Part shown: one piece after another, positions 1,809 to 10,705 of the stretch | How positions within the stretch are numbered: position 1 is the stretch's first letter | How the letters are laid out: each line of letters starts with the position of its first letter | From: Marinicella sp. | GTDB taxonomy: Bacteria > Pseudomonadota > Gammaproteobacteria > Xanthomonadales > Marinicellaceae | Reading direction: 5' to 3' | Assembly: GCA_965230295.1 (NCBI GenBank) | Contig: OZ246001.1 | Span: 3,168,001-3,232,000 of the forward strand | Length of the DNA: 64,000 bases | The notes under the pieces: generated by a model | What the model saw: the letters and a program-made list of their open reading frames with translations, nothing else | The model's database searches: none | What the model was told of the DNA's origin: nothing | Program-made: the position numbers and the translations under genes

Positions 1809-2567
1809 TTGGATCAAAGTGATGTTCTGAAAAGTTTGAATTTGGCGCTCAAAGCGTTTGCTGAGATGATTTATCAGTTTGATATTCCACAAGCAGAGGT
1901 TTGGAAGCTTGTGCGTTGGCACCTGGCTCACATTGCCAAAAATAACAGCGATGAGGATGAGTCGAAGAAGAACATAGCGGCACGTGCAGGGATCGATCGC
2001 AACAGTTATGCCAAATTCATAAAGGAGCCACCGCCAGAAGGTAAACCTTCAAATTTATCTGCGTTGATCACCATGGCATATGCACAAAGCAAGGATGGCG
2101 AATTGTCTATTAAGGATTTCTTTAAGATTTCAGAAAAGGTGATGAGAACCACCATGTCACCACAGAATGCCCTTGAAGAGTTGATTTCACGGAATGTCAT
2201 TTCATTCAAACCCAACTCATCAACCCATGTCATCGTAAAAAATGAGGGTTTATATGCTTCTGGAATGACAGAGTCATACCTCAATGTCTTTGCATCAACA
2301 CTGAACAAAGTAATCAGAACTTTGTTACACAACAGGGATGCGAAGCAATCTGACCAACTGTTTCAAGCCAACTTCTATTCAACCCAAATGCCTTTGAATG
2401 AACAAAGAGAGTTCAAACAATTCACTAAAGATGAATTTTGGGCATTGCGTGTGCGATTAAGGGAAAAAATTGAAGAACTTGAAAATCCGGATCTGCCTGT
2501 AGGTGCATTTTCTGAGGTCGGCGTTTCCTTACTACAAACCTACTTAGTCAAACACAACAAACACTAA
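1809..2567 (+). CDS. DUF6502-like protein (putative HTH-containing regulator)
   Basis: N-terminal IAARAGIDR HTH-like segment, SPQNALEELI, TLLHN, C-terminal EVGVSL; matches DUF6502 architecture as recalled; TTG start. Confidence 0.65.
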   Translation: MDQSDVLKSLNLALKAFAEMIYQFDIPQAEVWKLVRWHLAHIAKNNSDEDESKKNIAARAGIDRNSYAKFIKEPPPEGKPSNLSALITMAYAQSKDGELSIKDFFKISEKVMRTTMSPQNALEELISRNVISFKPNSSTHVIVKNEGLYASGMTESYLNVFASTLNKVIRTLLHNRDAKQSDQLFQANFYSTQMPLNEQREFKQFTKDEFWALRVRLREKIEELENPDLPVGAFSEVGVSLLQTYLVKHNKH

Positions 2568-2589
2568 CATAAATATTGGAGTCACTATA

Positions 2590-2859
2590 ATGAAAAAAAT
2601 AATAACAATGATCTGTTTCCTGGCATTCTCATCTTTTGCAATCGGTGCTGAAGACGGCACCGGTCAAGGCAAAGCTTCTGGATCAAACAGCAGTGAATCA
2701 TTTGCCTATTGTAATTTCTTGGTTCTCAACGCAGAAGACGGTACAGGGCAAGTTGATGCAGAAGACGGAACCGGCCAAAGTAAAGCAGAAGATGGCACAG
2801 GCCAAGGTAAATACCCTGATCCAAGGGTAGAGCTTTGTAAACAGCTGCTGTTTAAATAA
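2590..2859 (+). CDS. Small secreted protein with four AEDGTGQ repeats and a Cys pair
   Basis: GGAG RBS; Sec signal MKKIITMICFLAFSSFAIG; repeats identical in protein but synonymously diverged in DNA. Confidence 0.85.
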   Translation: MKKIITMICFLAFSSFAIGAEDGTGQGKASGSNSSESFAYCNFLVLNAEDGTGQVDAEDGTGQSKAEDGTGQGKYPDPRVELCKQLLFK

Positions 2860-3069: not shown

Positions 3070-4374
3070 CAAGGACAGGCATCGCTTGGAAGGTTTAAAG
3101 TCAGTTACTTAAGGTTGATTTGGCTTTAAATTTGATTGTTGAGGTGATGTATTTAGATTGTTTTTGACAGAACTGATGTTGGAATTGTTTTTTCAAAGAT
3201 TTTGATGGCTTTAATCCGAGCTGGACGGTTGCAGACATGCTCTGCTGCTGTGATTTTGATGGTTTAGGGCTATTCCAATGCAGGTGTGAGCGTAATTCCA
3301 ATCGTCCATTGACGCCTAGTTTTAGCTGAGAATTCTTTGAGTTGTGAGGTAGTTCCAACAGCGGAAAATCCGATGGATTTAAAGCCTTTGAGTTCATCTA
3401 ACCAAGTGTCAGGATTGATACCGATTTCATCGATGGCTTTGGCTGTTTTCTTGGAGATGAATCCACGTTTATCATCACGTAAACAACGCGCAGTTTCATC
3501 CACTATACTGATGTAGCTGGATAGATAAAAGGGTAGATCATTATCACCTTTGCCGAAACCTGATAACCATGTGTTTTGGTTATCAATTCGCTCTTTAATT
3601 GAAGTGAAATCAGAGTCTTTTAAATTCCTTGCCATTGCTGCCCTAATAGGATTCAAATCTACGTATGCCATACTGGTCAAAAGGGCACGTTCATCTAGCA
3701 ATGCCTGGCTTTTGAACCTACTTTCCCAGAAGTGACCAGTACACTTGTCTTCTTCATTAGCCATACGTGCAACATACTCATTAATGGCTTTCATGTACCA
3801 TGACACTGACATCAGCCTGACTCGATATTCAGCGACATATTCTTTAACTCGCCTTAGCTCAGCTTCGGTGTAGATTTCACCCTTCAGATACCTGTCACAA
3901 AGGACAGGTAATGAATAAAGTGAGCACCAAGTCATAAGCACTTGAGTGGCGTTCCATTCTATAGTTGAATTGACCTTTAAAACGATGTGAAAGTGGTTGT
4001 TCATGATGGCGTATGAACACACATCAATAGCAAATACAGAAGTGACCTGTTTGATGCGATCAATGAGCCACTGGCGACGGTGTTCAAAAGACTTTCCAGT
4101 GAACTTATCTTTACCACAAAGAAAGGCCCTGCGAACACACCTTGAAACAACGTGATAATAGGGCGTTTGTTCAACACAAATTTGTTGATTCCTGGCTACA
4201 GTCATACAAAGCTCCATATAAAAGGAAAATTTTGGCAATTTGAAGGATGTTTTTCTGTAGCAAACTACTGATGAGCGTGTAAGAATATATTTAAGTGATG
4301 CCTGTCCTTGTTTTGTTTCTTTCTGATGAGCGTGTAAGAATATATTTAAGTGATGCCTGTCCTTGTTTTGTTTC
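3070..4374. mobile_element. RAYT/Y1-transposase element bounded by 18-bp imperfect inverted repeats
   Basis: CAAGGACAGGCATCGCTT (3070-3087) versus AAGTGATGCCTGTCCTTG (4293-4310 and 4348-4365), 17/18 match, enclosing the HUH transposase. Confidence 0.7.
3270..4205 (-). CDS. REP-associated tyrosine (HUH, Y1_Tnp) transposase
   Basis: YYHVVSRCVRRAFLCG, HUH motif MNNHFHIVL, GHFWESRFKS, catalytic YVDLNP; ATG at 4205 preferred over TTG at 4238. Confidence 0.9.
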   Translation of the reverse strand: MTVARNQQICVEQTPYYHVVSRCVRRAFLCGKDKFTGKSFEHRRQWLIDRIKQVTSVFAIDVCSYAIMNNHFHIVLKVNSTIEWNATQVLMTWCSLYSLPVLCDRYLKGEIYTEAELRRVKEYVAEYRVRLMSVSWYMKAINEYVARMANEEDKCTGHFWESRFKSQALLDERALLTSMAYVDLNPIRAAMARNLKDSDFTSIKERIDNQNTWLSGFGKGDNDLPFYLSSYISIVDETARCLRDDKRGFISKKTAKAIDEIGINPDTWLDELKGFKSIGFSAVGTTSQLKEFSAKTRRQWTIGITLTPALE

Positions 4375-4792: not shown

Positions 4793-7700
4793 ATGACCAT
4801 GAAAAAAGCCATTAACATATCTCTAGCCACCATATTCTTATTTTTGTCAACGAATGCATTTGCGCAAGCACCCAGATTCAGTAAAAGTTTTTCTGATGGA
4901 TTGATCAACGTGGGGGAGACCACCACGCTGACTTTCACCATAGATAACTCGAACAGTGTGTTGGATTTAGAAAATGCCATTTTCAGAGATGATTATCCTT
5001 TGGGGCTACAAACAGCTGCTCCATCGAATTTAAGTTTCAACTGTTCAGGTGGCATAGGCAATAACCTGACATACATAGAAACCAATCTCTATGTCAACGC
5101 GGGCGAGGTGTGTACTGTATCTATTGATGTAACCGGCGTCAGTGCCGGTTTACAAGTCAATACCACATCCGAGATGACTTCAAGTCTAGGCAATGCAGGC
5201 CCCGCACAAGCTTCAATTGTGGTTAAAGATGCAGGTTCGCCAGCTTTCACAAAATCCTTTGGTGCAGCTCAGATTGAAGTGGGTGAGGTGACCTTTTTAG
5301 AGTTTTCCATAGACAACACAGCCAATGCAAGTGCAGCCAACAACTTGACCTTTATCGATGTATTACCACCAGGTATACAAGTGGCCACTCCAGATAATCT
5401 GGATTCTTCATGTGGTGGCATCACTGGGGTACTGAGTAACCAAGTGGATTTGAGTGGCACTTCACTGGCGGCAGGCGAGTCGTGCCTGATTTCTTTGGAT
5501 GTCGTTGGTGTGAGTCCAGGTATACAAGAAAACATCACCATTGATCTCACCTCAAGCGCAGGAAACAGTGGTCCTGCCGTGAGTTCAATTGAAGTACTGG
5601 CTACCCCTGTCCCTGTTTTCAATAAGTCATTTGCTGATGCTTCAATCGAAGTCGGTGGTACAACCACACTGACATTTACAATTGATAATACTTCAGTGGT
5701 TACGGACGCAAATGGCATGGCTTTTGATGATGTCTTGCCAGCCGGGATTGAAATTGCAGTCCCCGATAACTTAAGTAACAGCTGTGGTGGGGTGGTCAAC
5801 CTCACACCTGGCCAGTTGTCCTTTTCAGGTGGCAGTGTGACGGCCAATAATTCTTGTCAGATTTCAGTGGATGTCGAAGGCACCAATGCCGGCATCCAAA
5901 ACAACATCACCACCAACCTGACATCCAGTATCGGTGCCAGCAATCCAGCGACAGATCAAATCATTATTCGCGATTCCGGGACACCTGGATTTACCATGTC
6001 CTTTGCGGCCAGTGTGGTGGGTCAAAACACACCTGTTGCATTGACATTCATGATCGACAACAGCGCCATTGGCAGTGATGCGACCAATATGAACTTCAGT
6101 CACACCCTGCCAACTGACATGGCAATTGCTGCGCTACCCAATGTCAGTAACAACTGTACGGGAGGCACGGTTACTGCAATCAGTGGTTCATCTGTAATCA
6201 GTTACAACAGTGGTACTGTTGGTGCCAACCAGTCGTGTGAATTGAGTGTGGATGTGGTGGGTCTGGAGCCAGGGATTTACGTCAACATCACCTCAGATTT
6301 GGTTTCAAGTTTAGGCAACAGTGGACCTGCATTGGCCAACCTGGAAGTGCTGATTGCCCCTGATTTCTCTTTGAACACCCAAACGAACTACATGAGTGTA
6401 GGGGGTGTGACAACAATTACTTATTTGATATCTCATTTAGATGGTGATGCAGATGCGAACAGTTTGAACTTGACCCATTTGCTTCCTGGAGGTCTGGAAT
6501 TGGCAACACCTGCAAACGCAGCACACACTTGCGATGGTGGAGTACTAACTGCTGTTGATGGCAGCAATGTATTGACCTATACAGGTGGTGCGTTGATGCA
6601 GGGAAGTTTATGCAACATCTCTGTAGATATCATGGCCACCAGCTTAGGCGTGCAGAATGGAAGTTCTGATGATTTGACTTCCAATCTTGGTAACAGTGGT
6701 TCAGTGGATCTCAATATTGAGGTCATTGACGCCATCGAGTGGAATGTGGCCGGATCAGCCAGTTGGTTTGATGGTGCTAACTGGATGCCTAACCAAGTAC
6801 CTAACAGTGCACTTAATGTAAAAATCAACAATGGTGGCACTTCGGCTGTTGGTCTGGATGATGACGACATTGCCATGTTGGACTTTGGTGTGGGTGTCGA
6901 TGGCGGATCAGGTTTTCTGACTTTTGCTGATGACACCAGTTCTGAAATTGAGGTCAATGGGGCATTTGACATTGGTGTAACAGCTCAGGGATCTTCCACT
7001 TCGACAGGACGGGTTGAGTTCTTGGGAGACTCTAACAGCTTATTTGATTTCAGGAGTGACCCATCCACCATGCGAATCGGTGTGACCCAAACGGATGGTG
7101 ATGCAGATGGCACCCTGGTATTTTTAGACAGTTTCATTTCCTCATCGCCTCAGTTCGATGCATTGATGGTCGGAGTATCAGATGGCAGCGGCTCGGCAAT
7201 GGGAACCTTGGTGGCTGTGGATGCAAACACATCAAGTATCCAAACTGAAAACAACCCGGTCATGATCGGTGTCGCTAACAGCTCAGGTGATGCCACCGCT
7301 ATTTTCAATGGGACCGAAGTTCAAAACGTCGGTAGTTTTGATGCCGGCGTCAGCCATGGGGCTGGTCATGCCAATGCCACTGTAGACCTAGGGTTCAGTT
7401 TTAAAGGCACCACCAATGGTGGTTTACAAGGCCCGGCCAACATCGGTATCACCAACGACACAGGATCGGCCACGGCTGTGGTTAATCAGCAGTTGGATAT
7501 CTTTGGCACAGTCACAGCCAGCCGCTTTACCGAGTTGAATGTGGGTATCGCCAACGGAACCGGTGCAGCCAATGGCACCTTGCGTAACTCTAATGGCATC
7601 AGCATTCCAGTGATCAATGTGGGACTGAACCCGGGTGGTGGAACCGCTGATGGCTTGATCTATGTGGATCATGGCTTGATCGACACCACCACATTGACCC

Positions 7701-10700
7701 TGGGCGCTGGCAGCGTGTTGCAATTGAACGCCAACAGCACCACCAGAGCGGGTAATGGGTTTTCTGGCACGGTTTATTCAGCCGTAAATGCCAACACAGC
7801 TGTATTGGCTGGTGAACTCATCATTGATGTGAGTTTCTTATTAACGTCACCAGCCACTTTTGAAGTGGTAAACACCAATTCTCCAACAGGCATCACAGGT
7901 GTTTTCTCAACAGTCACAGTAAATAACTTACCTTCAGGTTTCGTGGTCTCTTCAGGGGTCCAACTGGACAATTTGGGTAACCAACAATTCGTGGTCAACA
8001 TCACCGGTACCCCGGTGCTGCCAGAATGGGATAATGTCAATACTGGTGTTGATGCCGGAGATTGGTTTGATGGTGGAAACTGGTCAGGTGGGTTCGTTCC
8101 ATTGGCAGTGGATCCGGCGATAGTAAATAATGGTGGTGAAGCATTGGCAGACAGCCAGACAGCACCTGGCACTGTGAGTCCCAGAGACATCATCATTGGC
8201 CAGGACGGTGGAACAGGTATATTCCGCAGCGAAGGAGTGGATGTGGTCCCCGGATTCAGCTTTTTGATCGCTAAAGTCAGTCCATTGATTTCAGCAGAAC
8301 AAACGGCCACCGGTGATGTGGTGATCAATGACGCCAACATCATTGTGCCTCCAAATGACTCACCGAGCACTTCAGTGTTTGACCCTGGTTCAGTCTTGGC
8401 AGTTGGTTTTGCCCAAGGTGGAGGCACTGCTGATGCCAGTATGGTCGTCAACAATGGCAGCATTCAGGTGGGTGATGATGTGTTGATTGGAGCGGCCTTA
8501 CCCATTGCTGTCGATGCCACCCCGACAGCTGATGCCTCATTCACCTTCAATGGTGCGGGTATCGATGTAAGCACCATTGAGGCAGATTCTGGTAATGGCG
8601 ATGTGCACATTGCTTTTGCTCAAGATTCGAATTCAGGTCCTGGTGCATCGCCGACCGCGATCGCCACTGCGAACATCAACAATGCCACCATCAATGCCGA
8701 TATCAACATCGCAGAAACGGATGCCTTCACTGATGACGCCATCAGCCAAGCCACAGCGAATAATGTGGTTCTAAGTAACCTGTTTGTGACTGGTGATTTG
8801 GACATTGCTGATGTCGGTGCTTTCGATCCCAGGGTGCAGGTCACTGCCACAGCCACTGCGACAATCACGGATGTGACCTTTGGTCCTGACAGCGGTTCAT
8901 TCAGTATTGGTAATGTCAATGCGGGTGATCCAGATGCCATAGGTACATCTATATCCACAAGTACCTGGACCCGAGTATCCATCACCGATTCAGATTCTGA
9001 TTTCGGTGTGGCTGATGTGTCAGCCAACCGAAGCAACACGGTAGCAACGGTCGATGCAGAAGTTACCTTCATTGACTCCATTTTGTCCATTGATGATTTA
9101 AATGTAGGTGATGTGTATGCCCAGGAAAATGGCGTCGGTAACCTCACGGCGACATTGAATCTTGAACAAAACACCACAGTGACTGGCCAGGAGTTGGTAC
9201 TGGGAGAATACTCCATCAATGATACGGCCAGAGCCACTTCGACAGTCAACCTCAATGTGACTGATTCAACCATCAGTCTGGGTGATGAAACTGTGTTGGG
9301 CGAAACCCGCGGTAGCAGCACCAACAGCGCCACTGAAATCATCATTGGTATGACCATGACCAATTCAAGCTTGGTTTCACCTGCTGTAAACATCGCTGAA
9401 AGCCTTTCACCCGCTGGATCACTCAGTGCCACATTGAGCTTGAACTCTGGTTATGTAGATACCGATGCATTGGACCTGGGTACCGATGGGACCATTGTGT
9501 TTGGCTTAAATGGCGCCAACCGGGCCACTTTGGCCAATGTCGGCGATACCAACACCTACTCAGCCATTGATGCAAGCGATGCAACCATTGCAGGAAACAT
9601 CGTTGTGGATTTCATCTCACCACCACCTGGTGGGTTTTTTACCTATGATTTAATTGTTACCGAAAGCGCCACGGCATTGGATGATTTCTCTGCTACCGCT
9701 TCTGTACTGAACCTGCCAGCCAGTGTGAATGTTTCGTTCTTTGGTGTGGCGGAAGACAACGGTGTTGATGTCTTGCGTTTGGTGGTTGCCTCACCCTTGG
9801 CTATTGACGATGCCTTCACTGTTGCGGAAGATTCAGTCAATCAGTCGTTTGATGTTCAGTTAAACGATGACAATTTAGCTATCAATGGCGTCATCATTGA
9901 GGCGGTCTCCACCCCAACTTTTGGTTCTGTCAGTATTGCTGCTGGAAATGATGCTTTGATTTATTCAGCTGGTCCTGATTTTTGTACCATTGATTCCAGC
10001 TTGGACACGTTCACTTACACCATCAGCGGTGGTTCAGTGGCCACTGTTACCGTCAATGTGACTTGTGTCAATGATGCCCCATCATTCAACGTTCTGGGAG
10101 ATGTTGTGGTGAATACTTTTGATGTGTCTAACAACCCGTTGTTGATCAGTGATTTTGCTGAAAACATCACTTTAGGTCCAGCCAATGAATCAGGTCAACA
10201 AATCGAAGGGTTCAACATCACAGTCCAGTCAGACACCAATGGCATCCTCAGTGGTATTTCTCTGGCCAATGATGCCACCCTCAGTGTAAATTTCAGTGGC
10301 AGTTTTGGTACAGCTTTGGTTGACGTGACTTTACAAGATAACGGCGGCACAGCCAACAACGGGTTCGATACATCGGCTGTCCAATCATTCAGCGTCATCC
10401 ACACCGACTTAATCTTTGCCAATGGCTTTGAACAAGCCACTGTCTTCAAAGTGGTGAATTATTTGGTTAAAGTTCAAGAGCAGAGCGTCCTGGGTCAAGG
10501 TCCGGTTTATCTGGATGCCTATGATGCGATTGAATTCAACGGTGAAATATACCGTTTGTATCAAGACCACCATTCTGTCCAGCAAGTCGCTGCTTTGAAC
10601 AGTTGGTTGCATGAGGTCTTGATGTTCACCGAACCGTTTGAAGATTATGACGGTGATGGCACACAGAACTTGTTTGATCCACAACCATTTTCTGCCAACA

Positions 10701-10705
10701 AATAA
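4793..10705 (+). CDS. Large secreted adhesin-like protein (DUF11-like Ig repeats, beta-helix-like regions, Big/cadherin-like domain)
   Basis: Signal peptide ...TNAFA; four FxKSF...TTTLTFTIDN repeats; two WFDGxNW modules; AIDDAFTVAED and VNDAPSF; DLIFANGFE; terminal DYDGDG. Confidence 0.85.
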   Translation: MTMKKAINISLATIFLFLSTNAFAQAPRFSKSFSDGLINVGETTTLTFTIDNSNSVLDLENAIFRDDYPLGLQTAAPSNLSFNCSGGIGNNLTYIETNLYVNAGEVCTVSIDVTGVSAGLQVNTTSEMTSSLGNAGPAQASIVVKDAGSPAFTKSFGAAQIEVGEVTFLEFSIDNTANASAANNLTFIDVLPPGIQVATPDNLDSSCGGITGVLSNQVDLSGTSLAAGESCLISLDVVGVSPGIQENITIDLTSSAGNSGPAVSSIEVLATPVPVFNKSFADASIEVGGTTTLTFTIDNTSVVTDANGMAFDDVLPAGIEIAVPDNLSNSCGGVVNLTPGQLSFSGGSVTANNSCQISVDVEGTNAGIQNNITTNLTSSIGASNPATDQIIIRDSGTPGFTMSFAASVVGQNTPVALTFMIDNSAIGSDATNMNFSHTLPTDMAIAALPNVSNNCTGGTVTAISGSSVISYNSGTVGANQSCELSVDVVGLEPGIYVNITSDLVSSLGNSGPALANLEVLIAPDFSLNTQTNYMSVGGVTTITYLISHLDGDADANSLNLTHLLPGGLELATPANAAHTCDGGVLTAVDGSNVLTYTGGALMQGSLCNISVDIMATSLGVQNGSSDDLTSNLGNSGSVDLNIEVIDAIEWNVAGSASWFDGANWMPNQVPNSALNVKINNGGTSAVGLDDDDIAMLDFGVGVDGGSGFLTFADDTSSEIEVNGAFDIGVTAQGSSTSTGRVEFLGDSNSLFDFRSDPSTMRIGVTQTDGDADGTLVFLDSFISSSPQFDALMVGVSDGSGSAMGTLVAVDANTSSIQTENNPVMIGVANSSGDATAIFNGTEVQNVGSFDAGVSHGAGHANATVDLGFSFKGTTNGGLQGPANIGITNDTGSATAVVNQQLDIFGTVTASRFTELNVGIANGTGAANGTLRNSNGISIPVINVGLNPGGGTADGLIYVDHGLIDTTTLTLGAGSVLQLNANSTTRAGNGFSGTVYSAVNANTAVLAGELIIDVSFLLTSPATFEVVNTNSPTGITGVFSTVTVNNLPSGFVVSSGVQLDNLGNQQFVVNITGTPVLPEWDNVNTGVDAGDWFDGGNWSGGFVPLAVDPAIVNNGGEALADSQTAPGTVSPRDIIIGQDGGTGIFRSEGVDVVPGFSFLIAKVSPLISAEQTATGDVVINDANIIVPPNDSPSTSVFDPGSVLAVGFAQGGGTADASMVVNNGSIQVGDDVLIGAALPIAVDATPTADASFTFNGAGIDVSTIEADSGNGDVHIAFAQDSNSGPGASPTAIATANINNATINADINIAETDAFTDDAISQATANNVVLSNLFVTGDLDIADVGAFDPRVQVTATATATITDVTFGPDSGSFSIGNVNAGDPDAIGTSISTSTWTRVSITDSDSDFGVADVSANRSNTVATVDAEVTFIDSILSIDDLNVGDVYAQENGVGNLTATLNLEQNTTVTGQELVLGEYSINDTARATSTVNLNVTDSTISLGDETVLGETRGSSTNSATEIIIGMTMTNSSLVSPAVNIAESLSPAGSLSATLSLNSGYVDTDALDLGTDGTIVFGLNGANRATLANVGDTNTYSAIDASDATIAGNIVVDFISPPPGGFFTYDLIVTESATALDDFSATASVLNLPASVNVSFFGVAEDNGVDVLRLVVASPLAIDDAFTVAEDSVNQSFDVQLNDDNLAINGVIIEAVSTPTFGSVSIAAGNDALIYSAGPDFCTIDSSLDTFTYTISGGSVATVTVNVTCVNDAPSFNVLGDVVVNTFDVSNNPLLISDFAENITLGPANESGQQIEGFNITVQSDTNGILSGISLANDATLSVNFSGSFGTALVDVTLQDNGGTANNGFDTSAVQSFSVIHTDLIFANGFEQATVFKVVNYLVKVQEQSVLGQGPVYLDAYDAIEFNGEIYRLYQDHHSVQQVAALNSWLHEVLMFTEPFEDYDGDGTQNLFDPQPFSANK

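Follow-up and report, generated by a model that had tools for sequence, protein, structure and literature searches.

A divergent DUF6502-superfamily regulator and an exported AEDGTGQ-repeat protein in Marinicella: a possible HetR/PatX-like module

Why would a gammaproteobacterium encode, directly downstream of a putative DNA-binding regulator, a small exported protein that consists almost entirely of copies of one seven-residue unit? The question is raised by two adjacent genes, open reading frames (ORFs) A and B, in a stretch of 64,000 nucleotides (nt) of the Marinicella sp. contig OZ246001.1 (assembly GCA_965230295.1, positions 3,168,001 to 3,232,000), which we call the window and whose numbering is used below. 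We propose, tentatively and with a probability of roughly 0.45, that ORF A and ORF B form an autoregulated module resembling the HetR/PatX system, in which exported peptides with a G-T-G core feed back on the regulator. We make this proposal because the export logic, the predicted receptor fold, the length of the repeated unit and its G-[ST]-G core all match. The parts of the module are as follows.

1748-1776, + strand: putative promoter, with a −35-like TTGTAT (1748-1753), a 17-nt spacer and a −10-like TAATAT (1771-1776)
1775-1802, no strand assigned: operator-like palindrome, core CTGCATA-N4-TATGCAG (1780-1797), arms 1775-1786 and 1791-1802
1809-2567, + strand: ORF A, 252 amino acids (aa), TTG start; divergent DUF6502-superfamily protein, predicted to have three domains arranged as in HetR
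2590-2859, + strand: ORF B, 89 aa, predicted exported repeat protein; signal peptide encoded by 2590-2646
2647-2667, + strand: AEDGTGQ copy 1, at the predicted signal-peptidase site
2710-2712, + strand: Cys41 codon, invariant in 10 of 10 orthologues
2731-2751, 2758-2778 and 2785-2805, + strand: AEDGTGQ copies 2-4, with the variable dipeptides VD and SK between them; predicted local distance difference test (pLDDT) score <50
2836-2838, + strand: Cys83 codon, invariant in 10 of 10 orthologues
2869-2888, no strand assigned: hairpin directly after ORF B, a possible operon end; it has no T-run on the + strand, and its role is uncertain

The exported repeat protein and its linkage to the regulator

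A preliminary description of this DNA had reported an ORF A of 252 aa followed, after a gap of 22 base pairs (bp), by an ORF B of 89 aa, and had placed AEDGTGQ copies with a 9-residue spacing between Cys41 and Cys83; both reports are borne out, and the four codon strings that it quoted for the repeats match the DNA exactly, with all differences synonymous. Both genes are on the + strand, and a GGAG at 2578-2581 stands 8 nt ahead of the ORF B ATG. The N-terminus of ORF B reads MKK, then a hydrophobic stretch, then AIG/A (the slash marks the predicted cut), a candidate cleavage site that, as read from the sequence, has small residues at −1 and −3 and is kept in orthologues. Like PatX, ORF B is a small protein with a predicted Sec-type signal peptide, whose A-x-G/A is kept in 10 orthologues. 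The AEDGTGQ units start at residues 20, 48, 57 and 66, and the last three stand in tandem, with a period of 9, flanked by the two cysteines.

The seven residues of each AEDGTGQ copy are under purifying selection, because variation is confined to third codon positions and the repeat columns are invariant in divergent orthologues. The four DNA copies in ORF B differ pairwise at 3-4 of their 21 bases, and every difference is synonymous. When the 12 copies from the window and from two orthologous operons, L001 and L002, were pooled, all seven third codon positions were variable (7/7) but none of the first and second positions (0/14); if seven variable sites were drawn at random among the 21, the probability that all would be third positions is 1 in 116,280. 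In an alignment of 10 orthologous peptides, which are 39-66% identical overall, the invariant residues are M1, K2, the two cysteines and the repeat positions, while the dipeptide spacers between the repeats vary freely.

The repeats do not resemble a known domain. No family in Pfam (calcium-binding repeat families included) or in NCBIfam matches ORF B at an expectation value (E) ≤1, and ORF B is not an RTX protein, as judged by the lack of a Pfam match at E ≤1 and by AEDGTGQxx lacking the GGxGxD pattern. Besides itself ORF B has six relatives, all of which carry 4-5 invariant AEDGTGQ units in an identical layout; no longer relative was found at E ≤0.01 among 4,338 candidates, which is weak evidence. 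The AlphaFold model of ORF B is of low confidence (pLDDT 54.3, and <50 for residues 49-75), with short helices at 35-48 and 78-87 that carry the two cysteines. Since the repeat stretch has low pLDDT and is flanked by the cysteine-bearing helices, the AEDGTGQ units look in this model like linear motifs in a disulfide-closed loop, and not like repeats folded into a domain. In the window, three of the four units are followed by a dipeptide that ends in Lys, but none is in a metagenome locus, L065, so that a shared cleavage site is not apparent.

ORF A and ORF B form a conserved unit, because the pair is kept while the flanking genes differ: in three loci the flanks differ entirely (folC and a PEP synthase-like gene; a prolidase-like gene and nhaA; GNAT and MATE genes). 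Matches to the profile of the ORF A family (A1) occur in 28 of 44 genomes of the taxonomic family, and a metagenome scan gave one further locus, L065. L065 and a third orthologous locus, L003, whose regulators are ∼44% identical, have ANDGTGQ ×5 in place of AEDGTGQ, all copies having changed together, with spacers of GK in L003 and of VD, VN and ID in L065.

The preliminary description had taken homologues lacking linked repeat peptides as grounds for abandoning its peptide-signalling idea. We find that 21 of 32 unique full-length family homologues adjoin a same-strand small exported ORF with a [DE]G[TS]-type motif. This is a hand-curated count; the automatic partner filter, which was too strict, gave 14, one of them false (L022). 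The motif is repeated in all of the 21 partners except those of L009 and L010, in which repetition is weak, and part of the partner in L013 is masked; in two of the 21 loci the peptide gene lies upstream of the regulator. The partner motifs are diverse and include GGDGTGNK, VGSDGTE, VVGDGSN, IGNDGQND, GEGGSN, VEQAGTD, QEGTDN, ADSDGSGA and AQDGTGN.

The window genome itself has a second small module, at C1:249656-250745 (coordinates on contig C1 of the genome), in which a 252-aa ORF A paralogue is followed after 11 nt by a 106-aa exported protein with STDTGTGG ×5. This module has its own palindrome, TCTGTAAGTATTTTTACAGA, 7-26 nt ahead of the start codon and of the type CTGTAA-N6-TTACAG; its sister regulator, in locus L034, also has a palindrome of this type, with arms of 13 bases. 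Both motif (AEDGTGQ versus STDTGTGG) and palindrome (TGCATA-N4-TATGCA versus CTGTAA-N6-TTACAG) set the two small-peptide modules of the window genome apart.

The regulators paired with AEDGTGQ and with ANDGTGQ are sister clades in a FastTree tree, and columns with fixed differences between them make up 11 of 99 in the C-terminal part compared to 7 of 153 elsewhere (one-sided p 0.044). R214S and R218N are among these clade-fixed differences, alongside the E to N change in the peptide. The enrichment is mild and gives a weak hint in favour of the feedback proposed below, since a single evolutionary transition underlies it.

The regulator: family, operator and predicted fold

The preliminary description called ORF A DUF6502-like, which holds at the level of profile comparison but not at that of the Pfam model: ORF A has no match to PF20112 (DUF6502) even at E ≤1, and does not reach the gathering score of 27 bits. 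In Pfam only a sub-threshold HTH_19 match was found (E 0.046, residues 53-73), and in NCBIfam nothing. Even in the wider ORF A family (alignment A2), PF20112 matches just 2 of 43 aligned members, with a best E of 4.8e-6; the homologue in L023 scores 18.5 bits. When the ORF A family was compared with canonical DUF6502 by hhalign, by contrast, the probability was 99.5%, with an E of 7.3e-23 across 251 columns and, in a second run, of 2.5e-22 across 250. In an ESM-Atlas feature search, 30 of 30 matches fell in one set of DUF6502-carrying clusters, with a top score of 0.95, and DUF6502 accounts for 46%, 98% and 49% of the members of the top three matches. Because of this whole-length profile homology and these clusters, and despite the lack of a Pfam match, ORF A belongs, on sequence comparison, to a divergent DUF6502-superfamily branch that escapes the Pfam model. 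The branch is small: at E ≤0.001 there are 8 close relatives among 506 candidates, one of them from a Marinicella metagenome-assembled genome, and 50 representatives among 1.84 billion sequences, 14 of these at E ≤1e-10.

The canonical members of the superfamily also have characteristic neighbours. Canonical DUF6502 is found in 73 of the 301 Gammaproteobacteria genomes sampled, with three copies in the Marinicella genome. In 24 of the 30 best canonical loci an open frame that begins next to the stop codon codes for a lipoprotein with (A/E/G)GGIGG[TS]G(I/V) just past the lipobox, compared to 0 of 30 in the antisense control; leaving out a single locus, from an unpublished genome, makes this 23 of 29. 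The statement in the preliminary description that GGTG-type motifs lie beside DUF6502 genes is thus well founded, the GGIGG[TS]G-type lipoprotein being the next gene in these 24 loci. The six scanned neighbours of canonical DUF6502 genes that have a family match, whether upstream or downstream, are all DUF5666 (PF18914), and no small repeat ORF adjoins any of the 30 best canonical loci.

The same pattern is seen within the window genome, in which each of the three canonical DUF6502 genes is followed by an exported protein that repeats G-G-T-G or E-G-T-G. A 6-mer containing G[TS]G is repeated in only 17 of 12,181 ORFs of at least 60 aa, and five of these 17 directly follow the five superfamily genes of the genome. 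Judged by sequence, ORF B is a miniaturised and multiplied form of the canonical DUF6502 partner. One of the canonical partners in this genome (C1:2553842-2554555, − strand) has AETEGTG[IL] ×4 before its hydrophobic segment and ATGEGTGG ×6 after it; if its upstream start is real, some of its motif copies would stay cytoplasmic. Two repeat proteins are not beside any of the five superfamily genes: a 264-aa exported protein with (I/V)DDGSG ×6 (C1:2041941-2042735, + strand) and a 119-aa frame with STGSGS ×8 (C1:3706087-3706446, − strand).

The region upstream of ORF A is consistent with autoregulation. In four orthologous upstream regions the blocks ATTGTA and ATAAnATA are invariant and are spaced like −35 and −10 boxes, and we infer from them that TTGTAT and TAATAT are the promoter hexamers; a consensus promoter scan did not list this pair. 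CACACA-rich short runs occur at 1680-1745 and 2860-2950, and also upstream of the orthologous operons in L001-L003. A 30-bp palindrome lies 6-35 nt ahead of the ORF A start codon, after the −10-like box, and is kept in L001, in L002 (where it is perfect, 15+15) and in L003, whose protein is just 43% identical. In all, perfect palindromes (arms of at least 7 bases, within 120 nt) are found in 14 of 34 upstream regions, compared to about 0.11 per region in shuffled sequences. The sequence TGCATA-N4-TATGCA occurs once in the 4,008,074-base genome. If up to 2 mismatches are tolerated over the 14 arm bases, the genome has 6 sites, the true one among them, roughly the number expected by chance on our estimate. 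Three of the five near-matches were inspected: the single 1-mismatch site is within an ORF of 834 aa, a second site is within one of 263 aa, and the third (2,021,319) is 84 nt upstream of a 344-aa minus-strand ORF. The pattern fits a dimeric autorepressor with a private operator.

To what known protein would such a regulator be similar in structure? The AlphaFold2 model of ORF A, a monomer built from the A2 alignment, has a mean pLDDT of 89.2 and a predicted template-modelling (TM) score of 0.73. In a Foldseek search against the PDB, the four best matches are all HetR chains (probability 1.00, TM 0.49-0.57), among them 4j00_A (E 1.5e-3, TM 0.56) and 4izz_A (TM 0.57). The HetR entries used for comparison were 4IZZ, 4J00, 4HRI, 4YRV and 3QOD. 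By VIA-align, the match to 4izz_A has a Z of 10.1 and a root-mean-square deviation (rmsd) of 4.7 over 228 aligned residues, pairing model residues 4-247 with HetR 10-298; other HetR entries score between 7.4 and 9.8, with five of six at 8.5 or above, while non-HetR rows at Z ≥7.8 (maximum 8.3) cover the winged helix at 80-150 alone. A search independent of Foldseek, against 48,161 representative chains, also ranked HetR first, with 4hri_B at a Z of 9.3 (218 residues aligned, rmsd 5.4); no more than 3 chains reached Z ≥8, and all non-HetR matches were limited to the winged helix. HetR is the sole solved protein that matches the model over its whole length, and a shared architecture of ORF A and HetR is probable on these models, although not proven.

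The model has three parts. Five helices make up the predicted N-terminus, with a helix-turn-helix (HTH) formed by helices 4 and 5 at about residues 53-72; this stretch also resembles the HTH of IS21-type transposases (E 0.0036, search of PDB sequences). A winged helix at 80-145 takes the place of the HetR flap. The C-terminal part (154-252) consists of a helix at 154-177, an invariant LFQANFYSTQM, a helix at 196-224 and an invariant PVG..EVGVS, which we read as the alpha-beta-alpha-beta order of the HetR hood. We note that a complex predicted for two ORF A chains with mature ORF B (residues 20-89) scored 0.01 and 0.00 compared to a mark of 0.32, in a run without controls, which speaks neither for nor against binding.

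The proposed feedback and its alternatives

In the feedback that we propose, ORF A would act as a cytoplasmic dimer bound to the palindrome between its own −10 box and start codon, and ORF B would be exported by Sec and would display its four AEDGTGQ copies in a disordered stretch. Signal peptidase would expose copy 1, copies 2-4 would lie in the loop closed by Cys41 and Cys83, and proteolysis in the periplasm would free short peptides with an E-D-G-T-G-Q core. These peptides would re-enter cells, dock as an added strand on the hood-like part of ORF A, as ERGSGR and HRGTGR do in HetR, and alter its grip on the operator. The DNA binding, the processing, the re-import, and the peptide binding together with its sign are steps that we infer. 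Re-import is conceivable because the genome has two genes for SBP_bac_5 (Opp/Dpp-type) peptide-binding proteins.

The precedent comes from cyanobacteria, in which the regulator HetR, with its partners PatX, PatS and HetN, is switched off by exported RG[ST]GR peptides. PatX has a Sec signal, and its export is needed for activity; it is cut by a periplasmic peptidase, PatP, to yield HRGTGR, which binds HetR (PMC12756182). The hood of HetR is an entwined dimer of alpha-beta-alpha-beta order, and the PatS6 peptide ERGSGR binds it through main-chain bonds to strand beta3 and releases DNA (PMC4649674).

Several observations weigh against the proposed feedback. With respect to the fold, Foldseek gave no PDB match to the ORF A model at E ≤0.001, the HetR Z of 9-10 is just ∼1-2 units over the winged-helix-only matches (8.3), and middling Z values are common for helical models and may reflect common arrangements; moreover, the equivalents of the flap and hood are shorter in ORF A than in HetR. 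No link between ORF A and HetR is seen at the level of sequence: ORF A has no HetR Pfam match at E ≤1, the C-terminal family HetR_C included, PF03574 (Peptidase_S48) is absent from the genome at E ≤10, and HetR is not among the PDB sequences matched by profiles A2 and A5 at E ≤10. With respect to the peptide, AEDGTGQ is acidic while RG[ST]GR is basic, with just the G-T-G core in common, and the invariant cysteine pair with its flanking helices would also fit a stable, uncut exported mini-protein. The two proteins are predicted to be in different compartments, and the cassette has no protease or transporter gene. No target beyond the operon itself was found, the operator core being unique in the genome. 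Finally, 11 of the 32 homologues have no partner peptide, two of these being at contig ends and five making up one whole clade, and the linkage counts overstate independence because related genomes are kin.

The alternative that survives best is that ORF A is a local repressor and ORF B its cargo: ORF A would autoregulate in response to some other signal, and the exported ORF B would never touch it, its G-T-G units serving a job of its own, such as binding an ion or a partner in the envelope. An operator private to the operon is what this alternative would lead one to expect, as are a cassette lacking protease and importer genes and canonical DUF6502 partners that are large DUF5666 lipoproteins, more like effectors than like precursors. 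The invariance of two cysteines placed in flanking helices favours it as well, and a period of 9 with acidic and Gly residues can be read as suited to cation binding. However, the repeat stretch is predicted to be disordered, and the search of ORF B against Pfam, calcium-binding repeats included, gave no support to such a role. This alternative also leaves unexplained both the pairing, throughout the superfamily, of a HetR-like fold with a G-[ST]-G motif and the joint divergence of motif, regulator and operator in the paralogues of one genome. We regard the repressor-and-cargo explanation as a serious possibility, although one that we would not favour. If it is true, the module would still represent a family of autoregulated operons whose operator is private and whose short envelope motif is under strong selection.

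Feedback could also take place before export, if ORF A bound the G-T-G units of the ORF B precursor while this was still in the cytoplasm, so that the operon was tuned to export capacity. Neither processing nor re-import would be needed. The motif adjoins the signal peptide or lipobox both in the window type and in the canonical DUF5666 lipoproteins, and one partner in the window genome has four units before its hydrophobic segment; both observations favour this alternative. On the other hand, the cleavage site lacks a copy in the ANDGTGQ clade, and PatX needs its export for activity (PMC12756182). There is no direct evidence for pre-export feedback, and we consider it improbable.

It is very unlikely that ORF B is a multi-core precursor, either of a ribosomally synthesized and post-translationally modified peptide (RiPP) or of another secreted bioactive, with its enzymes encoded elsewhere and ORF A merely its regulator. 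Several identical cores with variable spacers would suit such a precursor, but no maturase, leader-type or transporter gene is present, the flanks differ among the window, L001, L002 and L003, and RiPP leaders are not typically Sec signal peptides. The RiPP reading in the preliminary description is therefore unsupported, since the cassette lacks a maturase and the flanking genes vary among genomes. Least probable, in our view, is a quorum-sensing pair of the RRNPP or arbitrium type, to which the preliminary description compared this locus: the order of a regulator and then a small exported propeptide is the same, but ORF A matches no tetratricopeptide repeat (TPR) family in Pfam at E ≤1, and its model consists of an HTH, a winged helix and two long helices in a HetR-like tail rather than a TPR superhelix, so the comparison is wrong.

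Signalling between cells by peptides that act on cytoplasmic receptors is seen as characteristic of Gram-positive bacteria. If the HetR/PatX-like proposal is true, it would provide an evolutionary context for HetR, a function for the widespread DUF6502 proteins and their DUF5666 partners, and naturally orthogonal triplets of regulator, operator and peptide with which to carry out synthetic-peptide tests. A broader conjecture, which we think rather doubtful, is that HetR-type control by peptides did not originate as a cyanobacterial invention. The whole DUF6502 superfamily, with its 73 of 301 sampled genomes, would then consist of HetR-like cytoplasmic receptors for exported G-[ST]-G peptides, and Marinicella-like bacteria would have evolved orthogonal multi-copy pherotypes (AEDGTGQ, ANDGTGQ, STDTGTGG, VVGDGSN and others), each having its private operator. 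Such receptors and peptides would amount to a novel type of Gram-negative peptide signalling.

Neighbouring features and comparison with known systems

The genes around the module in the window are as follows.

3-701, + strand: LytS-type histidine kinase fragment, cut by the window start
703-1452, + strand: Response_reg plus LytTR regulator, which with the kinase lies directly upstream of the module
2918-2932 and 2953-2967, no strand assigned: perfect 15-nt inverted repeat between ORF B and the transposase-like gene; may be a hairpin like those of repetitive extragenic palindromic (REP) elements
3270-4238, − strand: 322-aa gene like IS200/Y1-type, REP-associated tyrosine transposases (RAYT) (PF01797, E 3.4e-5); its NF047646 match, at 40.6 bits, is under the cut-off of 80
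4793-10705, + strand: 1970-aa secreted protein with five DUF7933 domains (PF25564, E 4e-108)

We considered the upstream LytS/LytTR pair and the downstream RAYT-like gene as parts of the module and rejected them, since they are absent beside L001-L003.

A literature search, whose coverage did not extend to the original description of PatX, gave nothing on DUF6502 or on HetR-like proteins in proteobacteria or otherwise outside cyanobacteria. Among the papers listed for DUF5666 and for HetR homologues in Gammaproteobacteria none dealt with such modules, in the case of DUF5666 as judged by titles or the starts of abstracts.

How does the module compare with systems that are already known? In the fungal alpha-factor precursor, a signal peptide is followed by tandem identical units with short variable spacers and Kex2-type sites, and the precursor passes through the eukaryotic secretory pathway. 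ORF B likewise has tandem identical units with variable spacers, but it lacks an evident common cleavage site. In the RRNPP and AimR-AimP systems of Firmicutes and phages, a regulator is followed by an exported propeptide, and related systems use differing peptide types. ORF A, unlike those regulators, has no TPR receptor domain, the host is diderm, and there are several units per precursor. Of the RRNPP idea only the general logic survives, that of an exported peptide with a cytoplasmic receptor, and this is covered by the HetR/PatX-like reading.

The canonical DUF6502/DUF5666 pairs are closer, in that the regulator is homologous and is followed by an exported protein with a G-G-T-G-type motif near the mature N-terminus. 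There are also differences from the window pair. The canonical partner is a multi-domain lipoprotein of 300-500 aa with a single motif, whereas ORF B has 89 aa and consists almost wholly of motif copies. In addition, ORF A falls below the threshold of the Pfam model that defines the canonical regulators.

Since the RRNPP comparison does not fit, ORF A having no TPR domain and a HetR-like predicted fold, the nearest precedent is HetR with its Sec-exported precursor PatX. The module differs from that precedent in that ORF A and ORF B are in one operon and the host is a gammaproteobacterium, while HetR is described as specific to filamentous cyanobacteria (PMC7761841, PMC12756182). Furthermore, precursors of the ORF B type have four to five copies of the unit, compared to the one motif described for PatX in PMC12756182. 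The likenesses are that ORF A, on its predicted model, probably shares the whole-chain architecture of HetR and, to judge from the DNA, is paired like HetR with a palindromic site, here beside its own gene, and that ORF B, like PatX, is small, apparently exported by a Sec-type signal, and built on a unit of six to seven residues with a G-[ST]-G core. The pair thus falls outside HetR, PatX, RRNPP and Pfam DUF6502, and is best described as a divergent DUF6502-superfamily module that may work like HetR and PatX.

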